A stretch of DNA of 64,000 nt, taken from positions 224,688,001 to 224,752,000 of the forward strand of contig OX597814.1 of the NCBI GenBank assembly GCA_951406725.2. The letters are read 5' to 3'. Origin of the DNA: Octopus vulgaris (taxonomy: Eukaryota). Below the pieces are notes generated by a model, which worked only from the letters and a program-made list of their open reading frames with translations, did not search any database and was not told the origin of the DNA. Below, piece after piece: positions 1 to 45,739 of the stretch. The position numbers and the translations under genes are program-made. How positions within the stretch are numbered: the stretch's first letter is position 1; each line of letters starts with the position of its first letter.

Positions 1-1808
1 TACAAATTTATTTTAATGAGGAGATAACCTGGTCATGTTTATTCAGTTTCAGCCCTGCCATGACCATCTCAACATGATTTTAGTCAGTGTGACAAGGACT
101 GCATAATTCCGTTTTTTTTGTTTTGTTTTTGGTAGGGGTAGATATGACCACAATATATAGCAGGTTGATAACCATGTAAAAGCCTCACCAATAGACTCAA
201 ATTTATGATAATTTAGCCTGATATCAAATGTAAGAATAGTGATGAGAGTAAAGACAGATGTTTTTCATTCTCTGAATACCATTCCATGCAACACTGCATG
301 TGGGTTAGTTTGTGCCTAACATGTTATATAGTGTCTTCAGACAGTTTTTATAACATGCTGCATGAGAGAAGCTTTCTAGTCTCTAGCTTAGGAAGAGGGT
401 GCTGTGAGCCATTCCCCATGACCTCATTTTAGTGCAGTGAATTTGATTCTGTGAGAGTTAAAAGGAAGAAGAATCAACTCTAAATTTTGTCTGGTATTTT
501 ATTTATAGATTCTGCAGGGATGAAAAGTAGGGTCGACATGTGCCGAATTTTAATACAGAATGCCAGGAACCAGAATAATTACTGCAAGGCTTTTGTTTGA
601 TGTTTTAACGAATAAGCCAAATTACTGCATTAAAGATAATAGTGCCCAAGACTAAATGTATCACAATGTTTAGTTTCAACTCTCTTAGTTACAATAGTGT
701 CAGAGCCATTTTTATTTTTCCTTCCTTGAGTCATAGCCCAAGGTCAGCTCTGAGATAAGCAGATTTATCATCATCATCTTCATTTAGCGTCCACTTTCCA
801 TGCTAGCATGGGTTGGATGGTTCAACTGGGGTCTGGGAAGCCAGAAGGCTGCACCAGGCCCAGTCTGATCTGGCAATGTTTCTATGGCTGGATGGCCTTC
901 CTAACGCCAACCACTCCGTGAATGTAGTGGGTACTTTTTACGTGACACCGACACAGGTGCCAGACGAGGCTGGCAAACGGCCACGATCGGATGGTGCTTT
1001 TTTCGTGCCATCAGCACGGAGGCTAATCGGGGCGGCGCTGGCAACAGCCACATTCGGATGGTTCTCTTACATGCCCCCGGCACTGGTATCACAGTTACAA
1101 TTTCCATTGATGTTGATCGATTTTGATTTTGATTTTGATTCTGATTAAAGATATTTCAGCCATAACCACCTTATTATTTATTCAGACTTGGTGTATCAGG
1201 ATCTGCATTATCCAACGAGTAGGGTTTTGTATGGAGATTTGATTTATATATCCAGCAGATTGATTGGCCTGAAAGGTGTGGTCTAATTTGTTTGAATGAT
1301 TTCAGTAATATGAAGGAATTGATTCAAAAGGTTATGTTCCTTCTCATGCAAAAACAATAACTTTTTGCCAAATGAAGAAACAAACATAGCAGTGTGGCCA
1401 ATCAATATTGGATTCCTTTACCATATTTAGTGCAATTATAGTTTCCAAAAGACATCCACTTTAGCATATCAATAATCAATTGAACTAGCTTCGAATAATA
1501 CACTATTTATACAAATCAGGTTTTCCAATTTAGTGAAGTCCCTAATTGAGACTACACACACTGTCTTTGTCAATAAATCACAGTTGGGTTTATAGTTCCT
1601 GATGAACATCCTACATAGTACTAAAGATGGCTGAACTGATTCCTTATTCTTTGCTCTAGAGATATTGTATATGTATGTTTACATTTGCACTGTATGTGCT
1701 GGCTAAACCTCGTACTTCTACAGTAGTGTTACATCATACATTTATTCACATATTTAGTTTTCTGTCTTTTGGTGACAACTTCAACTTCTAAGATCAATAA
1801 TAAAATCA

Positions 1809-2225
1809 CAGGAGTGGCTGTGTGGTAAGTAGCTTGCTAACCAACCACATGGTTCCGGGTTCAGTCTCACTGCATGGCATCTTGGGCAAGTGTCTTCTGC
1901 TATAGCCCCGGGCTGACCAATGCCTTGTGAGTGGATTTGGTAGACGGAAACTGAAAGAAGCCTGTCGTATATATGTGTATATATAATATAAGTATGTGTG
2001 TATATGTTTGTGTGTCTGTGTTTGTCCCCCTAGCATTGCTTGACAACCGATATTGGTGTGTTTACGTCCCCGTCACTTAGCGGTTCGGCAAAAACAGACC
2101 GATAGAATAAGTACTAGGCTTACAAAGAATAAGTCCCGGGGTCGATTTGGTCGACTAAAGGCGGTGCTCCAGCATGGCCGCAGTCAAATGACTGAAACAA
2201 GTAAAAGAGTAAAAGAGTAAGAGAG
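1809..2225 (+). mobile_element. SINE family A (tRNA head, CORE-like segment, internal TA/TG microsatellite, AAGAGTA tail); representative copy
   Basis: A-box TGGCTGTGTGG, B-box GGGTTCAGTC(C/T)C, CTTGGGCAAGTG; about 18 copies in the window. Confidence 0.9.
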
Positions 2226-2289: not shown

Positions 2290-2655
2290 TGCTTTTATTC
2301 TTTTGTTTCAGTCATTTGACTGTGGCCATGCTGGAGCACTGCAACATGGTCAAACAAATCAACACCGGGACTTATTCTTTGTAAGCCTAGTATGTATTCT
2401 ATTGGTCACTTTTGCTGAACCGCTAAGTTACGGGGACGTAAACACACCATCAGTTGTCAAGCGATAGTAGGGGTACAAACACAGAAACACACACACACAC
2501 ACACACATGACTCTGTCTACCAAATCCACTCACAAGACTTTGTCAGCCCAAGGCTATAATAAAAGACACTTGCCTGAGGTACCATGCAGTGGGACTGAAT
2601 CCAGAACCATGTGGCTGGTAAGCTAACTACTTACCACACAGCCACTCCTGCACCT
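2290..2655 (-). mobile_element. SINE A
   Basis: Reverse-complement homology to 1809-2225. Confidence 0.9.
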
Positions 2656-25483: not shown

Positions 25484-26619
25484 TCAGGTCATCCCATAAG
25501 TTCTGTCCGAATTTTGAATAAAGAAAACAAGTGATCAAATGTTATATTTAATTGAAATTTAGTCATCAATGTACTTTCCCTGATTATCTGTGACTTTCTT
25601 CCATCTATTTACAAGCTTTTTAATCCTATCGGTGGATTAAAACTCTTTTGGTTTCAAAGCGAAGAACTCTGAAATGTCAGTTTCGGCCTCCTCCTGGCTT
25701 GCGAAAGTTGTCCCTCCAATGATTCTGTAAACTACGAAACAAATGGTAGTCTGAAGGAACAAGTTTGGGAGAATAAGGTGGATGATGAATTTTTTCCCAA
25801 CCAAGCTCTTCGATCTTCTGCGCTGTCCTTTGTGCATTGTCCTGATGAAACATCACTCCTTTTCGATTCACTAAAGCGGATCTTTTCTTCAATGCTTGGT
25901 TCAAACACTCTAATGGCTGACAGTAGACTTGAGCATTGACTGTTGCATTAGGTGGTAACAATTCAAAGTGAATTACTCCTTTGCAATCCCACCAGATAGA
26001 GAGAGGAACCTTTTTTCCATGAAGTTGCCTTCTGGGTTGTGGTTGAGCTTTTTCCCTTTTACCAAACCACTGTTTACGACATTTAACATTTCGATAGAAG
26101 ATCCATTTTTCGTCACCAGTCACAAGTCGATCTAAAAAGGGTGAAATGAGTTTGCAAGAATAGAGAGAAGAGCAAATGTCAACTCGGGATTTGTGGTTAC
26201 TTTCGAACAATTCATGAGGCACCCATTTTCTAAGTTTAGGAACCTTTCCAAGTTGTTGAAGATGACGATGAACAGTTGTATGGTTTGAACTAAGCTTTAT
26301 TGCTAATTCTTCAACTGATAATGCAGGATTTTCTTCAAGTAATGCCTCAAGGAGTTTATCATCAAACTCAACTGGACATTCTATTCGATCTTCATCTTCA
26401 AGGTTGAAATCTCCACATCTGAATTTTGCAAACCGTCTTCTGCAAGTTCTTTCATTCAAGCATTTAACTCTATTATTCTGTAAAATAATATTTAATTAGT
26501 TTAAATGTACACAAATGCATAAAATTAATTTTAAATTCCATTAGACATTCTAAAATACTATTAAATTTCACTCAATTTTAAAAAAGGTAAAATTGGGCAG
26601 AATTTATGGGATGACCTGA
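25484..26619 (-). mobile_element. mariner (DD34D-type) transposon, decayed
   Basis: TIRs TCAGGTCATCCCATAA(G/A)TTCTG at both ends, TA on the right. ORF 25677..26459 has WVPHEL, VTGDEKW, FHQDNA and YSPKLVPSDYHLF motifs. N-terminal deletion, a frameshift near LQNH and a premature stop. Confidence 0.95.
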
Positions 26620-26803: not shown

Positions 26804-26905
26804 ACTTCAATGATGGTGGAATAGGTCACATAGAAATGCTGTTTCGTTGTAATTATCTTGCTCTAGTGGGTGGTGGAAAAAATCCCAAATATCCACCAAA
26901 CAAAG
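26804..26905 (+). CDS. WDR45B: WDR45B exon 3: [34 protein letters not shown]
   Basis: Long polypyrimidine tract + tag, G|gtaaa donor; inside ORF 26758..27051. Confidence 0.96.
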
Positions 26906-27169
26906 GTAAAATTTATATCCCGTTTTATGAAATGGAATGTATTGGTGTTCTGAGAATTGAAATGTTTTGGGGTAGAAGTGTATATGGAATGATAATGGCA
27001 CACATGCTGTTACTGATATCAAAAGAAAGTTGTGGAAAAGCTATTACATGAGGTTATTGAAAAGGAAAGGCTTCATATGAATGGAGTAGATAATGGAATT
27101 TATTGAAAGAGTTATGGCATAAATGATTAGGAAGAATTTGGTATTGTACCAGTAAAAGGGAGACAACTG

Positions 27170-27410
27170 CAGAAGAACTTAGCTTGGTGTAATCCTCTAT
27201 AGCTAGTGTTCATTGATCTTAAAAACCTTTTGACAGAGTTCCACACTCTGTAATCTGGATGTAGCTAAGGAAACGAGGGGTAAATGAATGACTTGTGAAA
27301 TCCTTGCAAACCATGTAGAGTCGTGCAGTTAGTAAGGTGAGATTTAGTGATGAGTTCAGTGATGAATTTAGCTTGCTGGGATGATTCCATAGGCCTCATT
27401 TCTTAACCCT
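27170..27410 (+). mobile_element. Decayed RTE-type reverse transcriptase fragment
   Basis: Reads FIDLK..FDRVPHSVIW..LRKRGVNE.LVK.LQTM..AVSKVR with stops and frameshifts. Confidence 0.7.
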
Positions 27411-28419
27411 GCCTCCCTCTTGACAATCTTTTTTCTTCCCATTATGCTGCTCAAGTTGTTGGTTGTTTGTAAGAAGATTAAATAGAAAAAAACATGGCTA
27501 TCACTATCTCCCTTCCTTAATTCCCTTTTCTATTACTCTCTTACTCTAGACACCCTATTCCTCCATCATGATTTCACTTCCATCAACTCCTCACCCTGGT
27601 CCTCTATCCTTTATCACCCTCTCAGTTATTTTAGCCATTGCAAAAATCTGGACATGAGGTAGAAAAGAGATTTCCTTTAGTTTTGCTAGGGACAACGTAA
27701 TCTCTCAAATGCTGGTATGGATACAACATCAACCTTCCAGACACTGATGGTCCAGAACCTCTTATAACCTGCACTAATTTGTGAGAAGGAACTTCAGATT
27801 ACCACAACCATCGGACTAATTTACTGGGCGGCCCTGTTTTGCAGTACTTGACACTTTACAATATCAATAAACTTGTATAATTTACATAATGTACTGGTAG
27901 CTGTATTTTATTTAATTATTTAACATAAATTTAATATTTGTTTTAGAGGTGACCACCCCTGGTTCAGAAAAATCAGTATATAGGTGCAGATATGGCTGTG
28001 TGGTAAGAAGCTTGCTTCTCAACCACATGGTTATGGGTTCAATCCTACTGTGTTGCACCTTGGACAAGTGTCTTCTATCACACCGTGGGCTGATCAAAGC
28101 CTTGAGAATCCCTTACACCCCACTCCCACGTACCCCCACTCTTGCCTCCCCCACACCTCAACACCACCACATCACACACCACCATACCACACCACATCAC
28201 ACCACCTTGCACACACTTGCACTGACCACTTCCCAGCACCCACACCATCATCCATACACCTACACATGCATACACACACACACATCAAGGTCACCAGCCC
28301 CCATCCACACTCACATATGCACACGCACTTTCGTTTTGGGATCACCACTACTTTATTATCTCCCCTTCTTCCTAGCTCTCCTGTGTGACCCCTATGTCCG
28401 GCATTCACCATGATAGATC

Positions 28420-28587
28420 ACTAGCCATTAAACCTTTTTTATTTTCTCTCCCTGTTTATTTCTGTGTTCCTTTCTGTGGAAGAGTCTAGGCAAGAAACGT
28501 AAAAGCCTTTCTCACTTCCCGAGCATTAAACTAATACATCTGTTTGTTGTTTACACACCCGTCTCCGCCTTTTTTTTGTAAATTCTC

Positions 28588-28637
<50 letters not shown>

Positions 28638-28822
28638 ATCCAAACAAGAAAGCACAAAAAAACACAACACGTGGACGTGGAACAAATATAGTATTATCGG
28701 ACGCTCAGGAAAGAAGGAGGGTTTAACGTTTCGAGCGGAGCTCTTCGTTGGAAACAAAGGAGAAGGAAAGATCCAGAGAAGGGGAGACAGAGGAAAAAAA
28801 AATCGACACACGAGGTCACATT
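28420..28822. mobile_element. Two family H copies converging on one (TA)n tract
   Basis: + copy 28420-28590 and - copy 28635-28822 on either side of (TA)n 28590-28633. Confidence 0.6.
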
Positions 28823-28842
28823 TTGAATATATATATATATAT

Positions 28843-29560
28843 ATCATCATCATCATCATCATCGTTTAACATCCGTTCTCCATGCTAGCATGGGTTGGAC
28901 GGTTCGACCGGGGATCTGGGAAGCCAGAAGGCTGCACCAGGCTCCAGTCTTATCTGGCAATGTTTCTACAGCTGGATGCCCTTCCTAACGCCAACCACTC
29001 CGTGAGTGTAGTGGGTGCTTTTTACGTGCCACCTGCACAGGTGCCAGGCGAGGCTGGCAACGGCCACGGTCGGATTGGTGTATTTTATGTGCCACCGGCA
29101 CAGAAGTCAGTCGAGGCGGTGCTGGCATCGGCCACAAGTCGGATAGAGCTTTATACGTACCACCAGACCAGGGATCCTGGCTGGTTCAATTCGATTTCGA
29201 TTTCGCTTGCCCCAACATGTCTTCACAAGCAAAGGGGTTTGGCATGGGTGCCTGTCGTACGGTCGGATTGGAGTATTTTACGTGCCACCGGCACGGAAGC
29301 CAGTGGAGGCGGCGCTGGCATCGGCCACGAGTCGGATAGTGCTTTTTACGTACCACCAGACCAGGGATCCTGGCTGGTTCAATTCGGTTTCGATTTCGAT
29401 TTCACTTGCCCCTACATGTCTTCACAAGCAAAGGGGGTTGGCATGGGTGCCTGTCGTCGGATGAGGTTCTATATCGACTTCGCTTGCCTCAACAGGTCTT
29501 AGTGTCCAAGGGAGGAAAGGCATTCATAAGTGGGCTGGGCTCACTTGTCCTGCCTGGTCT
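28843..29560 (-). mobile_element. Family B ((GAT)n-tailed, probable RTE 3' UTR), longest copy; others at 768-1142(-), 3893-4220(-), 5168-5424(+), 17400-17851(+), 32655-33065(+), 34310-34550(-), 37150-37430(-), 37600-37767(+), 45200-45521(+), 49070-49380(+), 53085-53540(+), 57825-57987(-), 59830-60285(+), 60556-60915(-), 62335-62530(-)
   Basis: Shared 3' block ggagtggttggcgttaggaagggcatccagctgtagaaa..ccaacccatgctagcatggaaa.cggacgttaaacgatgatgat; variable 5' truncation; internal gtgcc.gtggcacgtaaaaagcacc subrepeats. Confidence 0.85.
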
Positions 29561-29934
29561 TATATATATATATATATATTTGTGTGTGTACATGTCTTGG
29601 TGTCTGTGTTTGTCCCTCTCCATGGCTTGAGAACTGCTGTTGGTGTGTGTTTACATCCCCGTAATTTAGCAGTTTGGCAAAAGAGACTGGTAGAATAAGC
29701 ACCAGGCTTAAAACATGAAAGATAAGTACTGGTGTCGATACATTTGACTGAAAATTCTTCAAGGTGGTGCCCTAGCATGGCCACAGTCAAATGACTGGAA
29801 CAGGTAAAAGATGAAAAAGACTGTAGAGAGGGTTTGAGACCAAAGGTTCCAGAAAATCAGTGTCGTACAGATATGACACTGATAAAATGTGCCCAGCATG
29901 TTCTGTAATGTGTTATTAGAAAAACGAAAAAAAA

Positions 29935-30079
29935 CGACGGGGGATCACTCGACTCATCTGTCGATGAAGAGCGCGGCTATCCACGTGAACTGATGCGAAT
30001 TGCAGGACTCAGTGAACATCGACGCCTCGAACGCACATTGCGGCCCCGGGATCCTATTGTCCCGGGGCCCTGTCCGGTT
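29935..30079 (+). pseudogene. Orphan 5.8S rRNA copy (ends slightly eroded; no 18S or 28S nearby)
   Basis: GGATCACTCG..GTCGATGAAGAGCGC..GAATTGCAGGAC..GAACATCGAC..GAACGCACATTGCGGCC are collinear 5.8S hallmarks; GC-rich 3' hairpin GGCCCCGGGA/TCCCGGGGCC at 30042-30069 is intact. Confidence 0.92.
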
Positions 30080-30084
30080 TCTAT

Positions 30085-30482
30085 GCGCAGGAGTGGCTGT
30101 GTGGTAAGTAGCTTGCTAACCAACCACATGGTTCCGGGTTCAGTTCCACTGCGTGGCATCTTGGGCAAGTGTCTTCTGCTATAGCTTCGGGCCGACCAAA
30201 GCCTTGTGAGTGGATTTGGTAGACGGAAGCTGAAAGAAGCCTGTCGTATATATGTATATATATATTTGTGTGTATGTTTGTGTGTCTGTGTTTGTCCCCC
30301 TAGCATTGCTGGTGTGTTTATCTCCCCGTCACTTAGCAGTTCGGCAAAAAAGACCGATAGAATAAGTGCTGGGCTTACAAAGAATAAGTCCCGGGGTCGA
30401 TTTGCTCGACTAAAGGCGGTGCTCCAGCATGGCCGCAGTCAAATGACTGAAACAAGTAAATTAGTAAAAGAGAGTAAAGAGT
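30085..30482 (+). mobile_element. SINE A directly downstream of the 5.8S copy
   Basis: Starts GCGCAGGAGTGGCTGTGTGG; full length apart from a small internal deletion. Confidence 0.9.
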
Positions 30483-30917
30483 ATAGAATCCATACCAAAG
30501 ATGAAATGTAAGGAGTAAAGTGTAGTCCTTGATTTATCAAAGAGGCTAGTAACACTAGTGAATTGGAGTGAATAGGGATGCACCACCCATCCTATGGAAA
30601 GTAGATGTAAAATAATGATTGTGAGAATGGCTTTTACATTATTTCTTCAATTTGAGCAAATTGTTGATGCAGCATTATAATCAGTATGCTCGTCAATCGT
30701 TCTCAGAGGATGTTCCTGAGCTAGGTCAGGGATTGAACTTGGACTTGTTGGTTATTTTGCCAATTGGATCTATCTACTAGATCATGATTTTATTTTTTTC
30801 TATGGGTTCCATGCATATAATTGGTAAAACACATCAACAGTTAGTACCTCATAAGGAAAATATACAGAGACAAAATGATAAGTCTATTGTCTCCTATGGA
30901 ACAATAAATGAACCAGT

Positions 30918-31057
30918 CATCATCTTCATCATTGTTCCACCGTGGTCGAGACAATGGAATTTACCATGCTACGCCAGACTTCACGGTCCATCATGGCATT
31001 ACGGAGGTGCTGTTGCTGGATGCCTGTATCCCTGGAGATTACATCAGGGTAGGAGAG
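30918..31057 (-). mobile_element. 3' end of the same RTE LINE family as 44413-44990
   Basis: Near-identical to 44425-44557 (SYPDVISRDT..DREVWRSMVNSIVSTTVEQ*). Confidence 0.9.
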
Positions 31058-33674
31058 TGGAGGTGTTTGTTTGGTTGGGAGCTGACTCTTCTCCATCAGG
31101 TGATACCTGTCTGTTAAGATTGAGGGCATCACCGTCAATGGATACCCTTGGAGGTGCAATGTGATCAGAGACAGGACCCGGCAAAGCAGGGGCTGGACCT
31201 ACATCCGCAGGTATACCATTAGGTCTGGTTCCCTGGGGAAGAGGAACCCTGGTGCAGTTAATTGCAAATTCCATAGTCTTTTCAAATGGCTAATAATGTG
31301 TGCGCGCGCCACTACTACACACAAATGAACACAAATGAACGAGTAGTTTGAACAGAACATTCCAAATTTTTCATATTGACAACACATTTTTTAGAAATAT
31401 GATTTTTTTGTTACATTAAGTTTTATTAGTGGCACCAAATTAATGAACTTAATAAACAACTAAATACCAGATGACATATGACCTGTCATGCATCTAAATG
31501 TTTAATCTCTTGGAATCTGTCTCACTGCTTGTCACGTTTTCTAATATAACCCCAGGCTGACTAATGCTTTATGAGTGAATTTGATAGATGGAAACTGTGT
31601 GGAAGCCTTATGTGTGTGACATTGATAAGGTACACCTTTCAGAGTGGTGCCCCAGCATGGTTGCACTTCACTGAGCATTACGAGAAAACAATAACCACCC
31701 CAGCACTCAAAGCAAAAACAATAATTAGGAACCCATTTGTTCAGTTATTATCATTTTGAAGACTTTTTAATGTCCAATATCAAGCTACATTTGTATATAG
31801 TCCTAATTCCGAGTGTTCAAACACGAACACACTTTTATTCATGAGGTCTGAGTGTTAACGTGTATATATATATAATGTATATATAATGTGTTATATTCTC
31901 CTGTTAAAAATGTATATCTAAAACTCTTGTCCTTAAGTACTAATCAAAAACTTGATTTGCTAAAATTGTGTGTGTGTGTGTGTGCACGTGTGGTGTGTAC
32001 TTGTTTCTCTGAATGTGTCCACTTGAAGAATTATCTTGAACTTTGGCTAGCTGATAGAACTGCATTAGTAAATTTCTCATTTAAATGTGAAAACTTGCTT
32101 CTTATGTTTATTTAGATAATGTTAATTGTTGAATTATTCAGTGTGGCTAATGAAGGCGGTTAATCAAGCCACTTAACATTCGATCAGTCACATTATTCCT
32201 CTGAAGTGAAAATTTAATGAAATTAGATTGGTTCTGTATTTCTAATTTTGATATCTTTTATCAACTGGGAACTTTCAACCACTGATAGAGGTTCACTTGA
32301 AACTCTTTAATTATCTTTCTGACCTTCCCATGTTAACTAATTTCATGAGAATGAATGCGTCTTATCAAAGAAATGGAATTTTATACTTTAATTACATCAA
32401 ATGTATGTATTTATTGCATCGCTATCAACTGAAGCTAATGTTAGTCTTAGTCTGCGTGGCAAAACCTGCCTCTCTATCAGCAATATGGATGGGAAGGTTT
32501 GAACTCAATTCAAGAATTTTATCAACTACTTATTACTATTGGCCTTTTAACTTTTAAACTGGCCATGTCCTGCCCAAATATTCTTCCTGCTTTATGTTCA
32601 AACGGATTAGATCCAGTCTCCCATTCCAATGTCATTCTAAAATAACACAATGTCAATCAAAATCAAATTCGATGACTGGCATCCGTGCTAGCGGGGTGCA
32701 GAGAGCACCATACAAGTGTGATCATTGACAGAGTGGCTAACCGGCTTCCATGCCAGTGGCTCATAAAAGGCACCATTCGAGTGTGATCGTTACCAGCGTT
32801 GCCTTAGTGGCATGTGTAAAAAGATTCGAGCGAGGTCATTGCCAGCACTGCCTGACTGGCCCCCATGCCGGTGGCACGTAAAAAGCACCCACTACACTCT
32901 CGGAGTGTTTGGCATTAGGAAGGGCATCCAGCTGTAGAAACTCTACCATAGTAGATTGGAGCCTGGTGCAGCCATCTGGTTTGCTAGCCCTCAGTCAAAA
33001 TCGTCCAACTCATGCTAGCATGGAAAGCGGACCTTAAACGACGATGATGATGATGATGATGATGATTCTAAAAATAAGCAATCACATTGTCAGAATCTCA
33101 AAGCTATGAGATAATTCATGATTAGTTCAAAGCAATGTGAATCAATAAGCCTTACTTTTGATAGAATAATGTGAAAACTAATAGGTTGAAGTTTTTGCTA
33201 CTTACAGTAGTAAACTATACTCAATCCTTTGCAGTTATTTTTATAACTACAGCACTGAAGTTGAAGTGTATCTTGATACATGTACAGGATATAAACTCTT
33301 GACACTTTAGTGGAGATCTGCTTGTGACCTTTTGTGTATGAATGTAGTGACTAAAGGCACTAAATATTCGGAAGTTGAGCCAATTTCCAAATATTTTCTC
33401 TTTGTTTTGTACGGATATTATGGAAATGCTTTATTCCATTCTGTACTCTTCAGCTTTACAGTCCATCATGAGTGCATCGTGCTGAAAGGGTTTCTTCAAT
33501 TGGAGCTGAGCTGGAGTCAAACAATAACAATATCATGCTATTGATTCCAGCACAATTGCTTGAGAGGTAGTCTTTGGTTCTTGAAGATTTCTTATAAATA
33601 ATAGTTATGTTGGTTTGTGATTTCCAAGAAATATATATTTCATCTCTGCCTTTTTTGAATGGGAAAGTTACTAT

Positions 33675-34090
33675 AGGCGCAAGAGTGGCTGTGTGGTAAG
33701 TAGCTTGCTTACCAACCACATGGTTCTGGGTTCAGTCCCACTGCGTGGCATCTTGGGCAAGTGTCTTCTGCTATAGCCTCGGGCCGACCAGTACCTTGTG
33801 AGTGGATTTGGCAGATGGAAACTGAAAGAAGCCTATCGAATGTATGTATATATATATATATGCGTGTGTGTGTTTGTGTGTCTGTGTTTGTCCCCCTAGT
33901 ATTGCTTGACAACCGATGCTTGTGTGTTTATGTCCCCGTCACTTAGCGGTTCGGGAAAAAGAGACCGATAGAATAAGTACTGGGCTTACAAAGAATAAGT
34001 CCCGAGGTCGAGTTGCTCGATTAAAGGCGGTGCTCCAGCATGGCCGCAGTCAATTGACTGAAACAAGTAAAAGAGAAAAAAAAGAGAGAT
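33675..34090 (+). mobile_element. SINE A
   Basis: Homology. Confidence 0.9.
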
Positions 34091-35933
34091 AGAATAAATT
34101 GTGACAGAAATCATAGATAGTTTCACTCCTCTAATATATGTAGCTATATTTTTCACGATAGTTGTTACCCTAATTTATAATTAAGTTTTATGCCCAGTCA
34201 ACAAGAGAGCTTCTGCACGGTCTGTTGAAGTGTGGAAAGAACAGCTAAATCTTTCTGAAACCACACTTGACTTTCTTAAAATTATGTAAGGATGCATTGA
34301 ACAATATCATTGTCATCATCATAATTTAATGTCCATTTTTCATGCTGGCATGGGTTGGATGCTTTGACAGGAACTGGTAAGGCCGGGGGCCACATCAGGT
34401 TCCATAGTCTCTTTTGGATTGGTTCCTATGGTTAGATGCCCTTCCTAGCACCAACTGCTCCACAGTGTACTGGGTACTTTTTATGTGGCACCAGCACCAG
34501 TGCTTTTTATGTGATACCAGCGCTCACATCAACACTTTTACATAGCACCTTGATTTTCAAAACAGTAAAAGTGTAAACAACAAGTTAAAAGGGTGGTTTA
34601 AACTCCAAAGCCACTAAAACACTATACTTAATGACCAACAAAGGAAGGTAAGCCCCTAGTGTACATACCCGTATTGTGATTTTAAATTTTGGTGTAGTCC
34701 ATCTTAATTCTCATCAGCATATGATTTCAACAGTTTTTCTTATAAGATTGACTAAGGCAGTTGGGTTTAACCCCAGGTGTTAAGAGCCGCTGATGAGAAT
34801 TGAAGTGGTCTACACCAAAATTCAAAATCGTGATATGGTTATCTATGCTAGGGACTTACCTCCCTTTGTCAGTCATTAAGTACTGTGCTTTAGTAGCTCT
34901 GGAGTTAACTCTTATCTTAGCATAAGTGGTGCTAGTCAGCACCCTCTGTCACTTTTGTGACCTTTATTAATATATATATAAGTATATAGATATATATGTG
35001 TGTGTGTGTATAACTGCTTCCAATAGTGGAGCTCTGGTTCAAGAATTTCAAGATTTTGAGGAATGTGGAATCACTTCTTACCCACTGTTGTCCCTATGTC
35101 TACTCTGACCCAGTGTAGTAGCACCTGTCAAGTCCCCAGCTCTGGGTTAATTAGCAGGTTATGGAACTAACTCTAAGCACTGCCTTGTGAGTGCCTTGAG
35201 AAAGGAAATGTTTAGGGGAGTTAGCTTCAACAACAAATCAAGTAGTGGAGTCCCTAAGGTAATCCAGTGTGCTCTTTGACACCCTTCCAGGAATTCCAGG
35301 GTAGGTGGCGCTCTCCAGCCCTTCAGGCAATTCAGCTAGGAGAAGGCCACTCCAATGTAAAACCTACAGCTTGCTGGTCACAGCAGCCACCTTAGCCTCC
35401 AAGTCTAAAGCATGGGATCAAATTGTCTGGACTGACGCTCACTTTAAAACCACTAAGTATGGGTGGGAAGAACTGGCTTGTAGCATCAAGGGTCACTTTA
35501 CATGACCACTCCAGGGCAAACTGCTCTTCCTCCTGATCTGCAATCACAAACAAACTGCTGTTATCATATAACACAAGTTGACATAGAGTAAATTTTGCAC
35601 GTCTTTATTATTAGTTATAATTGTTTTGGTACCATTCTGTTTCTAACACCAGTGGACCTAAACTAAATATGATACGTTTACACCTACCAACTTTATCTGT
35701 TCTTAGTAGGACACAGGTTGAAGAGGAGCTTGAGAAAACAGTTGAGAAATACTGGTCTAGGCATACGAGATCGTAGTTTTTGACCTATAATCAGTAGTCT
35801 ACTCCTTAGTATAATAGCTTTTGAAGTGGCTATAATATTTAGTGGCTATATGTGTGGAGTCACATGGCTTAGTGGCTAAAACATACTTGTGATTGTAAGA
35901 TTGTGGTTTCAATTCTTGAACTGGGCAATGCAT

Positions 35934-36298
35934 TACTCTTTACTCTTTTACTTGTTTCAGTCATTTGACTGCGGCCATGCTGGAGCACCACCTTTAATCG
36001 AGCAAATCGACCCCAGGACTTATTCTTTGTAAGCCCAGTACTTATTCTATCGGTCTCTTTTGCCGAACCGCTAAGTGACAGGGACATAAACACACCAGCA
36101 TCAGTTGTCAAGCAATGCTAGGGAGACAAACACACACACATACATATATATACATATATACGACAGGCTTCTTTCAGTTTCTTTGGTCGGCCCGGGGCTA
36201 TAGTGGAAGACACTTGCCCAAGGTGCCATGCAGTGGGACTGAACCCGGAACCATGTGGTTGGTAAGCAAGCTACTTACCACACAGCCACTCTTGCGCC
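35934..36298 (-). mobile_element. SINE A inserted in an old SINE D copy (35860-36440)
   Basis: SINE D head on the left; CORE-like and V-like body resumes on the right. Confidence 0.8.
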
Positions 36299-37734
36299 TA
36301 TTGTTTTTTTGTTTTTTTTGTGCAGTGCACTTCATTTCTTGTTGTTCCTGTCCACTCAGCTGGCCAGAATGAATAATCTTGTAATGGACCAGCATCCTGT
36401 CCAGTAGGATAGAAAATATATATGCCACAGAATCCAGAAAATTATCCTTATGTGTCTATGGGTTGGGAAGGACCTTATATCCATTTTGTGTGTGTGTGCA
36501 AGTGTATCTTAGAATGTTTATATTCTGCAGTCACATGAAAAATTGCTGAGCTATGAGTAGTTTTCTCTTGTCGTTTCTCTCTGCTTTTATGAAGGCAAGC
36601 AGAATAAAAACTGCCTTACTTGGAAAAATTGATTTAGTGGCTGGAAAGGCACTTGACATGAAAAATGCTTCAACAATATGTATTTATCTAGCTCATCTAG
36701 CTCATGTTGGCTTTGAAAAATGGATGGCAAACAAACAAATGAATGAACAAAATCTTTTCCATCCAAATAACCAAAGTAAAAAAAAATAAGGAAAAAGGAA
36801 GACTAGATTATATTTTAAGATGATCTGTTGAGCAGTTCCTACTGAACCAAATCAGTTTTATTGTCAGGTGTAGATTTATAGAGCACTTTGCTGAATCTTT
36901 CAATGTTATCAAGTAGCAGAACAATTGTCTGCTTATCATGGAATTTTTTTGGAGGAATACAAAATTGGTTTCTTTGGGGTATTTTTCACAAGACACCATC
37001 TTTGCTGGCTTGTTAGACAAATTCACCATACCTGCTGCAACTCTTAGAAGGTAAAGAGCTGGGACACATACGCAAAGCAATTTTATCAATTTCTGAGTTG
37101 TACTTGGCAGACAAGTGTTGAAACTAAAGCAATTGCAGTGTGGAAGACATCATCATCATTGTCATCATTTAATGCTTGCTCTCCATGTTGGCATGGGTTG
37201 GACAGTTTGACTACAGGAAGCTGTATAGACTCAGACTGTCTGCAGTTGCATTGTTTCTATGGCTGGATGCCCTTCCTAATGCCAACCACTTAACAGACTG
37301 CTTAGTGCTTTTTACATGTCACTGTCATGGGTGCATTTAAACAGCACTGGTCTGGGTGTGTTAACGCAACACCAGCACCTGAGAGGACAAGCCTGTATGT
37401 GTGGAAGACAAGAATTTTACTTAGCTTGATGTGTCTTAGACCCATGCTACCAAAAGCACAAAAAGACTATTAACTTCACTTGAACATCTCAAAATTTTCA
37501 TTATACAAACAGCAACCTAGTTGCTGCGTATCCTTGTCAGCACCCAAGTCATAGTTTGTGCGGTAAAAATGTTGAGAAATAATCACTCACTTCACTCTTG
37601 GACTGGTTGGCGTTAGGAAGGGCATCCAGCTGTAGAAACTCTGCCGGATCAGATTGGAGTCTGGTGCAGCCATCTGGTTCACCAAACCTCAGTCAAATCG
37701 TCCAACCCATGCTAGCATGGAAAACGGACGTTAA

Positions 37735-37769
<35 letters not shown>

Positions 37770-37984
37770 ATTCGAAGTGCTAAGCAGTGAGGTGTACAAA
37801 TATAAACCAGTTCAAATATGCTTGACGCATATTCAAACCTGTACAAATATAAACTTGGCTTGGTGTGTTTACACCTATTAGTCTACAGTGAGAATTTTTC
37901 TCCATGACAAAATGCAGTAATTGTTTTTCTTAGAGGCTCAGTTATGTCTCAAGCATATTTGGACCGGTAACAAGTTTATATTCT

Positions 37985-38178
37985 TTTACTCTTTTACTTG
38001 TTTCAGTCATTTGACTGTGGCCATGCTGGAGCACCGCCTTTTAGTCGAGCAAATCGACCCCAGGACTTATTCTTTGTAAGCCTAGTACTTATTCTATCGG
38101 TCTCTTTTGCTGAACCATTAAGTTACAGGGACTTAAACACACCAGCATCGGTTGTCAAGCAATGGGGGGGGGGGGCAA

Positions 38179-38209
<31 letters not shown>

Positions 38210-38889
38210 CACACATATATACATACATATATATATATATACATATATATATACTTATATACGACGGGCTTCTTTCAGTTAAGTCTTTGTGTGTTTTTGA
38301 ATGGCTAACGCATGTCTTTTGTGTTGTATCATTTCTACATATGCTCTACTAATTCTGCTAATTCACCGCCCTGGGCCCTGGATTGGTACTATATTTTATT
38401 GGCACTGGAAGATATGAAAGGAAAAGATAACCTTTGTAGGAATTGAACTCTGACTGTAAAGAGCTGAAATGTTCCGATAATTATGTCTGTTTGCAGTGTT
38501 TTGTTGGTATTCTTTTATTCTTTTACTTGCTTCAGTCATTTGACTATGGCCATGCTGGAGTACCACCTGAAAGGGTTTTAGTTGAACAAGTCAACCCCAG
38601 GACTTATTTTTCTATCAGTCTCCTTTTGCTGAACTGCTAAGTTACGGGGGACGTAAACACACCAACACCAGTTATCAAGTGGTGATGGGAGACAAACAGA
38701 CACACTCACGCATACACAATAGGCTTCTTTCAATTTCCGTCTACCAAATCCACTTACAAGGCTTTGGGGCTTTAGTCGACCTGAGGCTATAGTAGAAGAC
38801 ACTTGTCCAAGGTGCCATGCAGTGGAACTGAACCTGGAACCATGTGGTTGGTAAGCAAGCTTCTTACCACAACAGCCACACCTGTGCCT
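37985..38889 (-). mobile_element. Two SINE A copies (37985-38280 truncated; 38518-38889)
   Basis: Homology. Confidence 0.85.
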
Positions 38890-40064
38890 AAATATATGAT
38901 AAATAAATAAATAAATAAATTCTTAAAAATGTGTTGAAAGGAATACAATTGACTTTTGCCTTCTCATTTGTGATCTTAAGAATCTTCAGATCAGTGCTTC
39001 ATAGAATATGTTGACTAGAACTGTTAGCAATATAAGTTAGACAATCCTTTGTGCTTTTTTTTCCCCTTCTTAATGGAAAAGTAAACATTCTTGTTACAAA
39101 TGGGAATTCTTTTCCTGATGTGATAGCGATTATGATAGCAATACTTGCCTTAGATTAACAAACTGTTAAGTTGCATAATCTGTTTGTAAGGTCTTTGCAC
39201 ACTGGTTCAAAAGAAACCTGAAATGAATAGTATTGATTTCTTTTGACGAGGCAGAAAGAAGTATACTTAATTAAATTGCGTCTGCTTCTGTTAATTCACT
39301 ATCTACAGAGATAAATATTATTGATCTCTTTTGTATGAACACAGGTTTGCAAAATTTGTAGGTGTGGGATGTGATTAATTGTATTAATCACAGTCCATGA
39401 CCAATGTTTATTTTGATGTGTACCGCATAAAATGAAAAGCAAAGTAGATCCAAGTGAATCCTCTACTCATGATATAGGGAGGCAAATAATGACAGGCTTC
39501 TACTCCAGTGGGTCTCCATTAAAATGTTGAACTATACTGATGCCTTGGTCCCTTTAAAAAGAAAAAAATGAGATAAGAGGAAACATTACTTTTGGACTTC
39601 AAAATTGAATGAATTTATAAGCAGAAAATTTTGAAATCAGAACACTGGAAATTGTTTGATATTATTACATCGTCATCATTATCATCATCATCATCATCAG
39701 CATCTTCATCATTGTCGTTTTAATGTCTGCAGTCAGATGTCCTTTTCTTTGCCAATCATCACTTGTTTCCAAGCAAGGTGACATTACTTCGTGGTCAGAC
39801 ATGCTTTCACAAACAAATTACTAACAATCAACACCATGCTTGTTTACAACTATCATGCAATCTCAAAGCAAGGACACACTGACACACATACATACATATG
39901 ATATACATACACACATGATGGGCTTCTTTCAGCTTCCCGCCATCAAATTCATCCACATGGCTTTTCCCAGCATGGGTCTTTAGTGTAATCAATTTCCATA
40001 TGTATATTTCCTTTAGTAAAGGGATATGATGATCCATAACAAACTATTACATTTTCCCTTTTAG

Positions 40065-44412: not shown

Positions 44413-44990
44413 TCATCATCATCATCATCATTGTTCGACCGTGGTCGAGACAATGGAATTTACCATGCTACGCCAGACTTCACGGTCCATCGTGGCATTA
44501 CGGAGGTCCTGTTGCTGGATGTCTGTATCCCTGGAGATTACATCAGGGTAGGAGAGTGTGCGCCCTCTGGTATTGCGAGTAGATGGCTTCCAGAGGAGAA
44601 GAGTAGAAATTGCCTCGTTTTCAGCTCTACAACAATGTCCAGCAAACTGGACTCTCCTACCTTTCACAAGAGGTGACACAGGTGGTAGCTTCCCATATAT
44701 TTGCATTTTGGTTGGATGACGCTTCCACAAGAGATTTTGAGCTCTCATAAGGAGGCGAGTGTAGGTTCCATCCAACCGCCTCTCAAGCTTCTTTGATAAC
44801 GTCCAGGTTTCTGAGCCATATAGTAGAATTGGTTTGACTGTGGCTTTGAAGATTTCAAGTTTGAAGTCTCTACTTAGGTTTGATGACCAGATCTTATGCA
44901 TGTCATTACAGGCTGACCAGGCCATACCCTTTCTAGTTAGAAAATCTTTTCCAGATGACCCAAGATATTTGTAATCAGAAACCATATTTA
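44413..44990 (-). mobile_element. 5'-truncated RTE-clade LINE (C-terminal end of the RT ORF plus TGA-repeat tail)
   Basis: ORF 44428..45054: YKYLGS..ILLYGSETWTL..RRVQFAGHCCR..DREVWR, followed directly by (TGA)n. Confidence 0.9.
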
Positions 44991-45739
44991 AGGGCGCATT
45001 TTTAAAGGTTAGACCTAGAAGAGGGATTATCAAATACATTCTACCCCTATCCATCCCATTTTTGTGATTTTTGCTTCAGAACAATATATCTAGGGTTACA
45101 TCATTCAGTATATTTTTCAGATGTTAAAGTTTGAGTTTTCAAGCAGTGGGGTTTAATTGCGAGAAATTTAGCTGCTATTTTTTTAACAAGTTGAATACAA
45201 AAAAAAGCATCCTTGCTGATGCCACATAAAAAGTATCTTTGCTGATGCCATGTAAAAAGCACCCATGCCAGTGTCACGTAAAAAAATGTGCCCATGCTGG
45301 TGTCATGTATAAGGCAATCATACAGGAACCACATAAAAAGCACCCAGTACTGTAAAGTGATTGGCATTAAGAAGGGCACCCAGCCATAGAATCCATGCTA
45401 AACTGACAATTGGAGCCTGGTGCAGCTCTCCTGCTGACCAATTCCTGTCAAACCATCCAACCCATGCCAGCATGGAAAAACGGATGTTAAATGAGATGAG
45501 ATGATGATGATGATGATGATGATTCTTTGCTGGTGTAGTTTATCCTTTTGTTACCATATTTTTAAAATTAATTTTGAAAATAATGAAGAATTTAGAATGA
45601 TAATTTTGTCATTATTAACCTGCTGCTTGGAACATAAATTAACATAAATTAACATAAATTAACATGGCATTTAAAATGGAAGATTTGAATTTAGATCACT
45701 TTAAAACAGGAAGTTCACATTATAGACAAAGGAGTATTC

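Follow-up and report, generated by a model that had tools for sequence, protein, structure and literature searches.

How did a 5.8S rRNA sequence come to stand directly in front of a SINE, inside an intron? This question is raised by a locus in the 64-kb window, by which we mean the whole stretch of cephalopod DNA that was analysed. The original prediction had described the locus as a 5.8S rRNA-SINE chimera in intron 3 of a gene, and had explained it by a one-off template switch of a LINE reverse transcriptase or, if multicopy, by a 5.8S-headed composite SINE. The features that bear on the question are collected in Table 1.

Table 1. Coordinates of the locus and its surroundings in the window
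Feature	Position	Strand	Basis and remarks
Host intron of the WIPI3/WDR45B (PROPPIN) gene, ~13 kb	26906..40064	+	E 3.9e-32 to WIPI3; PF21032
Left flank	29764..29924		X18 record 1 letters 497-655: 7 substitutions, 2 gaps; ancestral intron DNA, older SINE tail
A-rich 10 nt	29925..29934		Between the last base common to organism E and the 5.8S copy
Decayed host 5.8S rRNA copy	29935..30076	+	Rfam RF00002 and high-depth contigs
GC-rich 5.8S hairpin	30042..30069	+	Arms 30042-30051 and 30060-30069, perfect 10-bp reverse complements
Junction spacer	30077..30084	+	5-8 nt; last three bases TAT recur directly after the SINE tail
Full-length high-copy SINE ('SINE A')	30085..30481	+	Repeat comparison in the window
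Right flank	30482..30799		X18 record 1 letters 152-483: 28 substitutions, 14 gap letters

The 5.8S copy, the SINE and their host intron

The Rfam model of 5.8S rRNA, RF00002, matched positions 29929-30082 of the forward strand with 95.5 bits (E 1.1e-22; model positions 1-154 of 154), and the copy clears the gathering score of 42 bits. The alignment was solid from about 29935 to 30076 and poor over the first 6 and the last ~11 positions of the model, and the copy likely lacks a few nt from its 5' end as well as ~11 nt from its 3' end. Since human 5.8S rRNA exists in a long form, a short form and one cropped by 10 nt (PMC8691633), raggedness at an end does not have to imply breakage. As predicted, the 5.8S sequence is nearly complete and its 10-bp GC hairpin is intact; the stem is also paired in the predicted fold. 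Folding of 29925-30160 gave z = -1.38, with 17 of 200 shuffles as good, and no special 5.8S-SINE structure was detected. The absence of 18S or 28S nearby also agreed with the prediction, the 5.8S copy being the sole gathering-level match among 4227 Rfam families across the 64 kb. At low stringency only two further matches appeared, MIR827 and SNORA65, both at chance level, and no second match to the 5.8S part was found within the window. With neither 18S nor 28S in the 64 kb and with flanks of intron DNA, the copy lies outside the 18S-ITS1-5.8S-ITS2-28S array of a functional rDNA unit.

The original prediction had called for a comparison with the host's own 5.8S. Very high-depth contigs cover the 5.8S part in all three contig runs (X4, X8 and X18) and match it closely, from which we conclude that the sequence derives from the rRNA of the host. 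On the same grounds we rejected a contaminant 5.8S of foreign origin. Depth was at the single-copy level in the bin 29887-29927 (67, 5.5 and 123 in the three runs) and three orders of magnitude higher in the next bin, 29928-29968 (244,892, 8,094 and 172,601), although such summed contig depths do not equal copy numbers. Relative to the high-depth rDNA, the copy has at least four differences among those listed, at 29983, 30024, 30058 and 30071 (~3%), a count that is a floor, as mismatched contig ends may be clipped. The rDNA letter at each of these sites accounts for >99% of the depth in two runs or more; in X18 its share at 30071 is 94.8%. Three of the four sites read as CpG decay. The host 5.8S with ITS flanks was also sought among metagenome contigs by two exact-pattern scans, with 0 matches.

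The SINE follows in the same orientation as the 5.8S. Counted from the 5.8S end (30076), the gap is 5 nt with a SINE start at 30082 and 8 nt with one at 30085; the predicted spacing was about 5 nt. No A-tail lies between the two. Our literature search found no family name for this SINE, which we call SINE A and take to be Octopus-like. It is present at high copy number, with 11 head-and-tail copies in the window including the one at 30085-30481. That copy carries a TA/GT microsatellite, a 14-nt private deletion and a short-repeat tail. Visual comparison with the Pol III consensus suggested an A-box-like motif at 30094-30104 and a B-box-like motif at 30137-30147 in this putative tRNA-type SINE; neither ARAGORN nor Rfam calls a tRNA in the element. 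All six other 5'-intact copies (3092, 15329, 33677, 36297, 58368 and 2653) are preceded by AG, five of them by TAG, and three of the six repeat a 4-7 nt motif ending in AG after the tail. The AG may stem from microhomology with the 5' end of the SINE or from a preference for certain targets. Elsewhere in the window, the copies at 1806-2217 (+) and 2303-2653 (-) lie tail to tail, ~85 nt apart, and form a long imperfect inverted repeat.

Both parts lie in the sense orientation between the WIPI3/WDR45B exons at 26804-26905 and from 40065 onwards, which confirms the predicted intron. Its number, 3, would fit the human WIPI3/WDR45B exon numbering; a motif search did not find exon 1. Several other repeats occur in the region. 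An older, 5'-truncated relative of SINE A (29552-29830, +), ~72-75% identical to the young copies, ends ~95 nt upstream of the insert, and its last 67 nt are common to organism E (see below). A tandem duplication with a 193-nt unit (29066-29457; 2.0 copies, 90% matches) lies within a second abundant repeat family. The preceding intron contains a 272-amino-acid open stretch (25677-26495, -) that matches Pfam Transposase_1 (E 3.3e-24) and that we take to be the remnant of a mariner-type transposase. Further downstream, a 215-amino-acid open stretch (44428-45075, -) has a weak DUF6451 match below the cut-off and presumably resembles the C-terminal end of a LINE protein.

The insert in related organisms and the ages of its parts

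Four of the 24 listed runs were aligned to 29600-30800 at 80% likeness, three as contigs (X4, X8 and X18, from organisms B, D and E) and one as raw reads (X22). In organism E, a 655-nt contig at depth 64 aligned to 29764-29924 and then to 30482-30799, with 13 unaligned letters where the window has 557 bases. Because this one contig joins 29924 to 30482, we conclude that organism E is without both the 5.8S and the SINE at this site, and the empty site that the original prediction had suggested looking for in a relative was thereby found. The flanks of the window and of organism E differ at 35 of 477 positions (7.3%). The original prediction would have been contradicted by a flank matching ITS; the sequence upstream of 29925 proved to be host intron, not ITS1.

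In organism B, a contig over 30445-30800 with 2 substitutions (X4 record 15) joins the right flank to the SINE tail. In organism D, the depth of contigs without the rDNA letter was 6.0 at 30024 and 7.1 at 30058, compared with a single-copy depth of ~6.5. The evidence for the 5.8S at the site in organisms B and D is indirect. Among the matches listed (24 of 552,565 pieces, 15 of 2,364 joints and 23 of 2,722 loose ends), no contig piece crosses the 5.8S/SINE or the flank/5.8S junction. An orthologue with one part only, which would likewise have told against the prediction, is also absent from the listed pieces, and the co-absence of 5.8S and SINE is observed in one outgroup with an empty site, organism E. 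The raw-read run X22, whose species label is that of the best holder, had 51 of 12.9 million reads aligned and no rDNA depth; none of the 51 covered the 5.8S/SINE junction, the flanks or the greater part of the 5.8S copy, and the run is uninformative for the locus.

The two parts have diverged to a similar degree. The SINE differs from the majority of eight other aligned copies at 10 of 333 columns (2.4-3%), of which two are read as artefacts at the edge of the 14-nt deletion, leaving 8 of 333. Because the 5.8S differs by ~3% from the host rDNA and the SINE by 2.4-3% from its family, the ages suggested by these letters would be compatible with one event (at least 4 of ~137 vs 8 of 333 differences; Fisher p = 0.75), in a comparison that has few sites, little power and a 5.8S count that is a floor. 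A harsher guess of 7 of 140 for the 5.8S gave p = 0.16. Both divergences are below or near half of the distance to organism E, as expected for an insertion after the split from E.

A probable template jump and its alternatives

We consider the insert to be probably a single chimeric retrocopy that arose through an end-to-end template jump. The insert holds at most ~10 nt beyond each mature 5.8S end (ITS1 could account for up to 10 nt and ITS2 for 5-8 nt), and therefore an RNA, not an rDNA fragment, is likely to have been the template. The one-off chimera of the original prediction is thus favoured by the joint absence in organism E, by ends within ~10 nt of the mature 5.8S and by the roughly equal divergence, with the qualification that co-arrival of the parts is seen through one outgroup.

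In the mechanism that we propose, the partner LINE of the SINE would nick the intron at ~30482 and prime on the SINE tail. Its reverse transcriptase would copy the SINE RNA to the first base and add a few untemplated bases, which would form the spacer. It would then jump to 5.8S rRNA, an abundant molecule, entering at the 3' end or close by and copying almost as far as the 5' end. In the repair step the cDNA would be connected with the left flank and no duplication made; a little target DNA was likely lost or replaced. The R2 reverse transcriptase does add up to 5 untemplated bases in vitro and jumps at the template end (PMC4117753). The A-rich bases at 29925-29934 could be host DNA, the end of ITS1 or an addition by the reverse transcriptase. 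The resulting 5.8S-SINE copy is likely dead as a unit, because Pol III transcription would begin with the first base of the SINE itself, so that the 5.8S would not be included.

In agreement with the original prediction, we found no convincing target-site duplication (TSD) around the whole block. The longest flank match was a 5-mer (29917-21 and 30484-88), which we rejected as a TSD because both copies are present in the organism E contig and the 5-mer is therefore ancestral. Eight of the 11 SINE copies in the window have no flank match longer than 4 nt, so the absence of a TSD is ordinary for SINE A and weighs little. The other three show flank repeats of 6-7 nt, compared with 9 of 110 crossed pairs, and we conclude from them that SINE A can leave TSDs.

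That SINE A can leave TSDs of 6-7 nt, yet none encloses the whole block, also speaks for the chief alternative, two sequential insertions on the same branch. Under this explanation, which we regard as unlikely, a tailless 5.8S retrocopy and an ordinary SINE with a TSD of 3 nt (or an eroded one of 5 nt) would have arrived separately. The original prediction had left room for two insertions, and that room persists: organism E is the one outgroup with an empty site, so sequential arrival on a single branch would fit the same pattern, and there is a direct repeat of 3 nt around the SINE alone. This repeat, TAT, sits exactly on the two edges of the SINE (30082-84 and 30482-84), and the right flank begins with TATAG, a motif found just upstream of two other SINE copies. 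The AG that precedes the other 5'-intact copies and the AG-ending motif that three of them repeat fit the same explanation, and the 13 unplaced letters in organism E could include the spacer. Against these points, flank matches of at least 3 nt occur in 104 of the 110 crossed pairs, counted anywhere in the tested flanks and not at one exact position, and a single change in TAG, which is usual in this family, could have given the upstream TAT. The chance that a same-strand SINE head would fall within 10 nt of the 5.8S is ~9e-4 at the SINE density of the window if there is no site preference. The similar divergence of the two parts also argues against separate arrivals, as does the lack of an A-tail between them that could have primed a separate retrocopy, and tailless copies of Pol I rRNA are under-represented in human (PMC5322556).

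A multicopy composite SINE, mobile as one element and headed by a 5' module from 5.8S, seems very improbable. The geometry of the locus is the same as that thought to yield new SINE heads (PMC5786205; PMC4758252), and the total contig depth at 30071 leaves room for many copies, with upper bounds, rDNA included, of ~490 single-copy equivalents in X4, ~420 in X8 and ~29 in X18. A family is not supported by these data, yet could be accommodated by them, since copies with the host's letters would hide under the rDNA depth. Against a family, none of the 10 other head-and-tail SINE copies in the window has a 5.8S upstream, and the loose ends that precede 30085, found in 929-1328 contigs of each run, consist of AT-rich DNA of mixed sequence (agreement 0.45-0.49). 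Depth lacking the rDNA letter stayed near single copy in X8, with 0.9, 1.1 and 2.5 equivalents at 30024, 30058 and 30071 by this rough measure. The same rough measure gave 5.4, 15 and 2.0 in X4 and 3.8, 26 and 1.5 in X18, and at the CpG site 29983 it gave 15, 22 and 7.7 in X8, X4 and X18. These residual depths suggest a few scattered 5.8S pseudogenes and no large family. 5.8S rRNA is not known to have an internal promoter, which also counts against movement as a unit. We therefore hold it highly doubtful that the locus represents a composite SINE family of recent origin whose head came from 5.8S, a Pol I rRNA, or the founding event of one. Separately, the residual depth in X4 and X18, from several to ~26 single-copy equivalents, hints at other dispersed 5.8S pseudogenes in these organisms.

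Equally remote is the capture of an rDNA fragment at a DNA break, at or near the SINE insertion. The 10 A-rich nucleotides upstream and the 5-8 nt spacer could be the ends of ITS1 and ITS2, but both ends lie within ~10 nt of the mature 5.8S ends, which would be rare for a random fragment, rDNA-level depth is absent at and before 29927, and neither 18S nor 28S occurs in the window. Finally, an assembly artefact, in which an rRNA read or a contaminant was spliced into the assembly, is barely conceivable: although no listed piece (24 of 552,565) crosses either junction of the 5.8S, the copy is decayed relative to the high-depth rDNA at four sites, mostly CpG, the depth without the rDNA letter in X8 (6.0 and 7.1 at 30024 and 30058) equals the single-copy depth of 6.5, and the SINE 3' junction is present at the site in organism B.

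Comparison with known chimeras and rRNA-derived SINEs

At the locus, a cellular RNA has a copy immediately 5' of a retroelement, in the same orientation and with a spacer of 5-8 nt, whereas no single TSD surrounds the whole block. Given the order, the strand and the RNA boundary on one side and, on the other, the missing TSD and a co-arrival that is seen through one outgroup, we regard its membership among the chimeric retrogenes as probable, not proven. A SINE RNA that is complete to its first base, as a Pol III transcript, should carry a 5' triphosphate. Ligation by RtcB, a route described for U6/L1 that would yield the same order and strand as here, depends on a 2',3'-cyclic phosphate and, for the downstream RNA, on a 5'-OH (PMC6789731). 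We rank this route below the template jump because full-length SINE RNA should lack the 5'-OH, and because ligation leaves the spacer unexplained.

The nearest relatives of the locus are the chimeric retrogenes of mammals (U6/L1, U3/L1, 5S/L1 and 28S/L1, among others), in which, as here, a cellular RNA lies 5' of a retroelement on the same strand (bioRxiv 10.1101/2025.02.02.635956). In that report, comparative alignment indicates that the parts arrive together, as one-offs without propagation, and the 28S/L1 chimeras (n = 18, 83% sense) establish that a Pol I rRNA can be the 5' partner. The present case differs in its 5' partner, 5.8S rRNA, a term that does not occur in the main text of the same report, and in its 3' partner, a full-length SINE where the mammalian cases have a 5'-truncated L1. 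The mammalian chimeras also have TSDs of 7-19 bp and a poly(A), neither of which is found here, and the host here is not a mammal. A non-mammal case attributed to LINE template switching is that of the WEIRD/Mg-SINE and WEIRD/Mg-SINE/MGL chimeras of Magnaporthe grisea, where a non-coding RNA likewise lies 5' of a SINE (PMC2104539). The non-coding RNA there is highly expressed, and the chimeras show a SINE truncated at its 5' end and direct repeats of 12-14 bp, in contrast to the full-length SINE without a TSD described here.

Ribosomal RNA also serves as a SINE-like module in SINE3, which has a 5S head, and in SINE28 (PMC5786205, PMC10946416, PMC4994717). Both are high-copy families of near-identical structure, whereas one copy was seen here (PMC5786205, PMC10946416), and high copy number is the test for an rRNA-headed SINE family (PMC5786205). 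Rows of the table of rDNA-derived elements in PMC10946416 include 5S, 28S and intergenic spacer, and none of the nine passages of that paper that mention 5.8S describes a 5.8S-derived element. The main text of PMC4476161 contains none of the terms 'rRNA', 'U6-Alu' and 'U6-SINE'. In our searches of the open-access literature we found neither a 5.8S-SINE chimera nor a 5.8S-headed SINE; subscription papers, repeat databases and supplements may hold one. The event is of a known kind, with an unusual partner, 5.8S rRNA, that we have not found in print.

A single dead copy changes little. If the junction were multicopy, it would represent a new SINE class. As it stands, the locus offers a clean, datable example of the kind of event thought to give SINEs new heads, and the presence/absence pattern of the insert is usable as a phylogenetic marker. 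When a SINE is copied to its first base and a short spacer adjoins it, this is the trace that end-to-end template jumping, known from R2 in vitro, would be expected to leave. Such genomes, where SINE copies number >10 per 64 kb, could be screened for the RNAs to which their resident LINE jumps. Compared with the chimeras described in mammals, the locus would extend chimeric retrogenes to 5.8S rRNA and a full-length SINE, in what we take to be a cephalopod.
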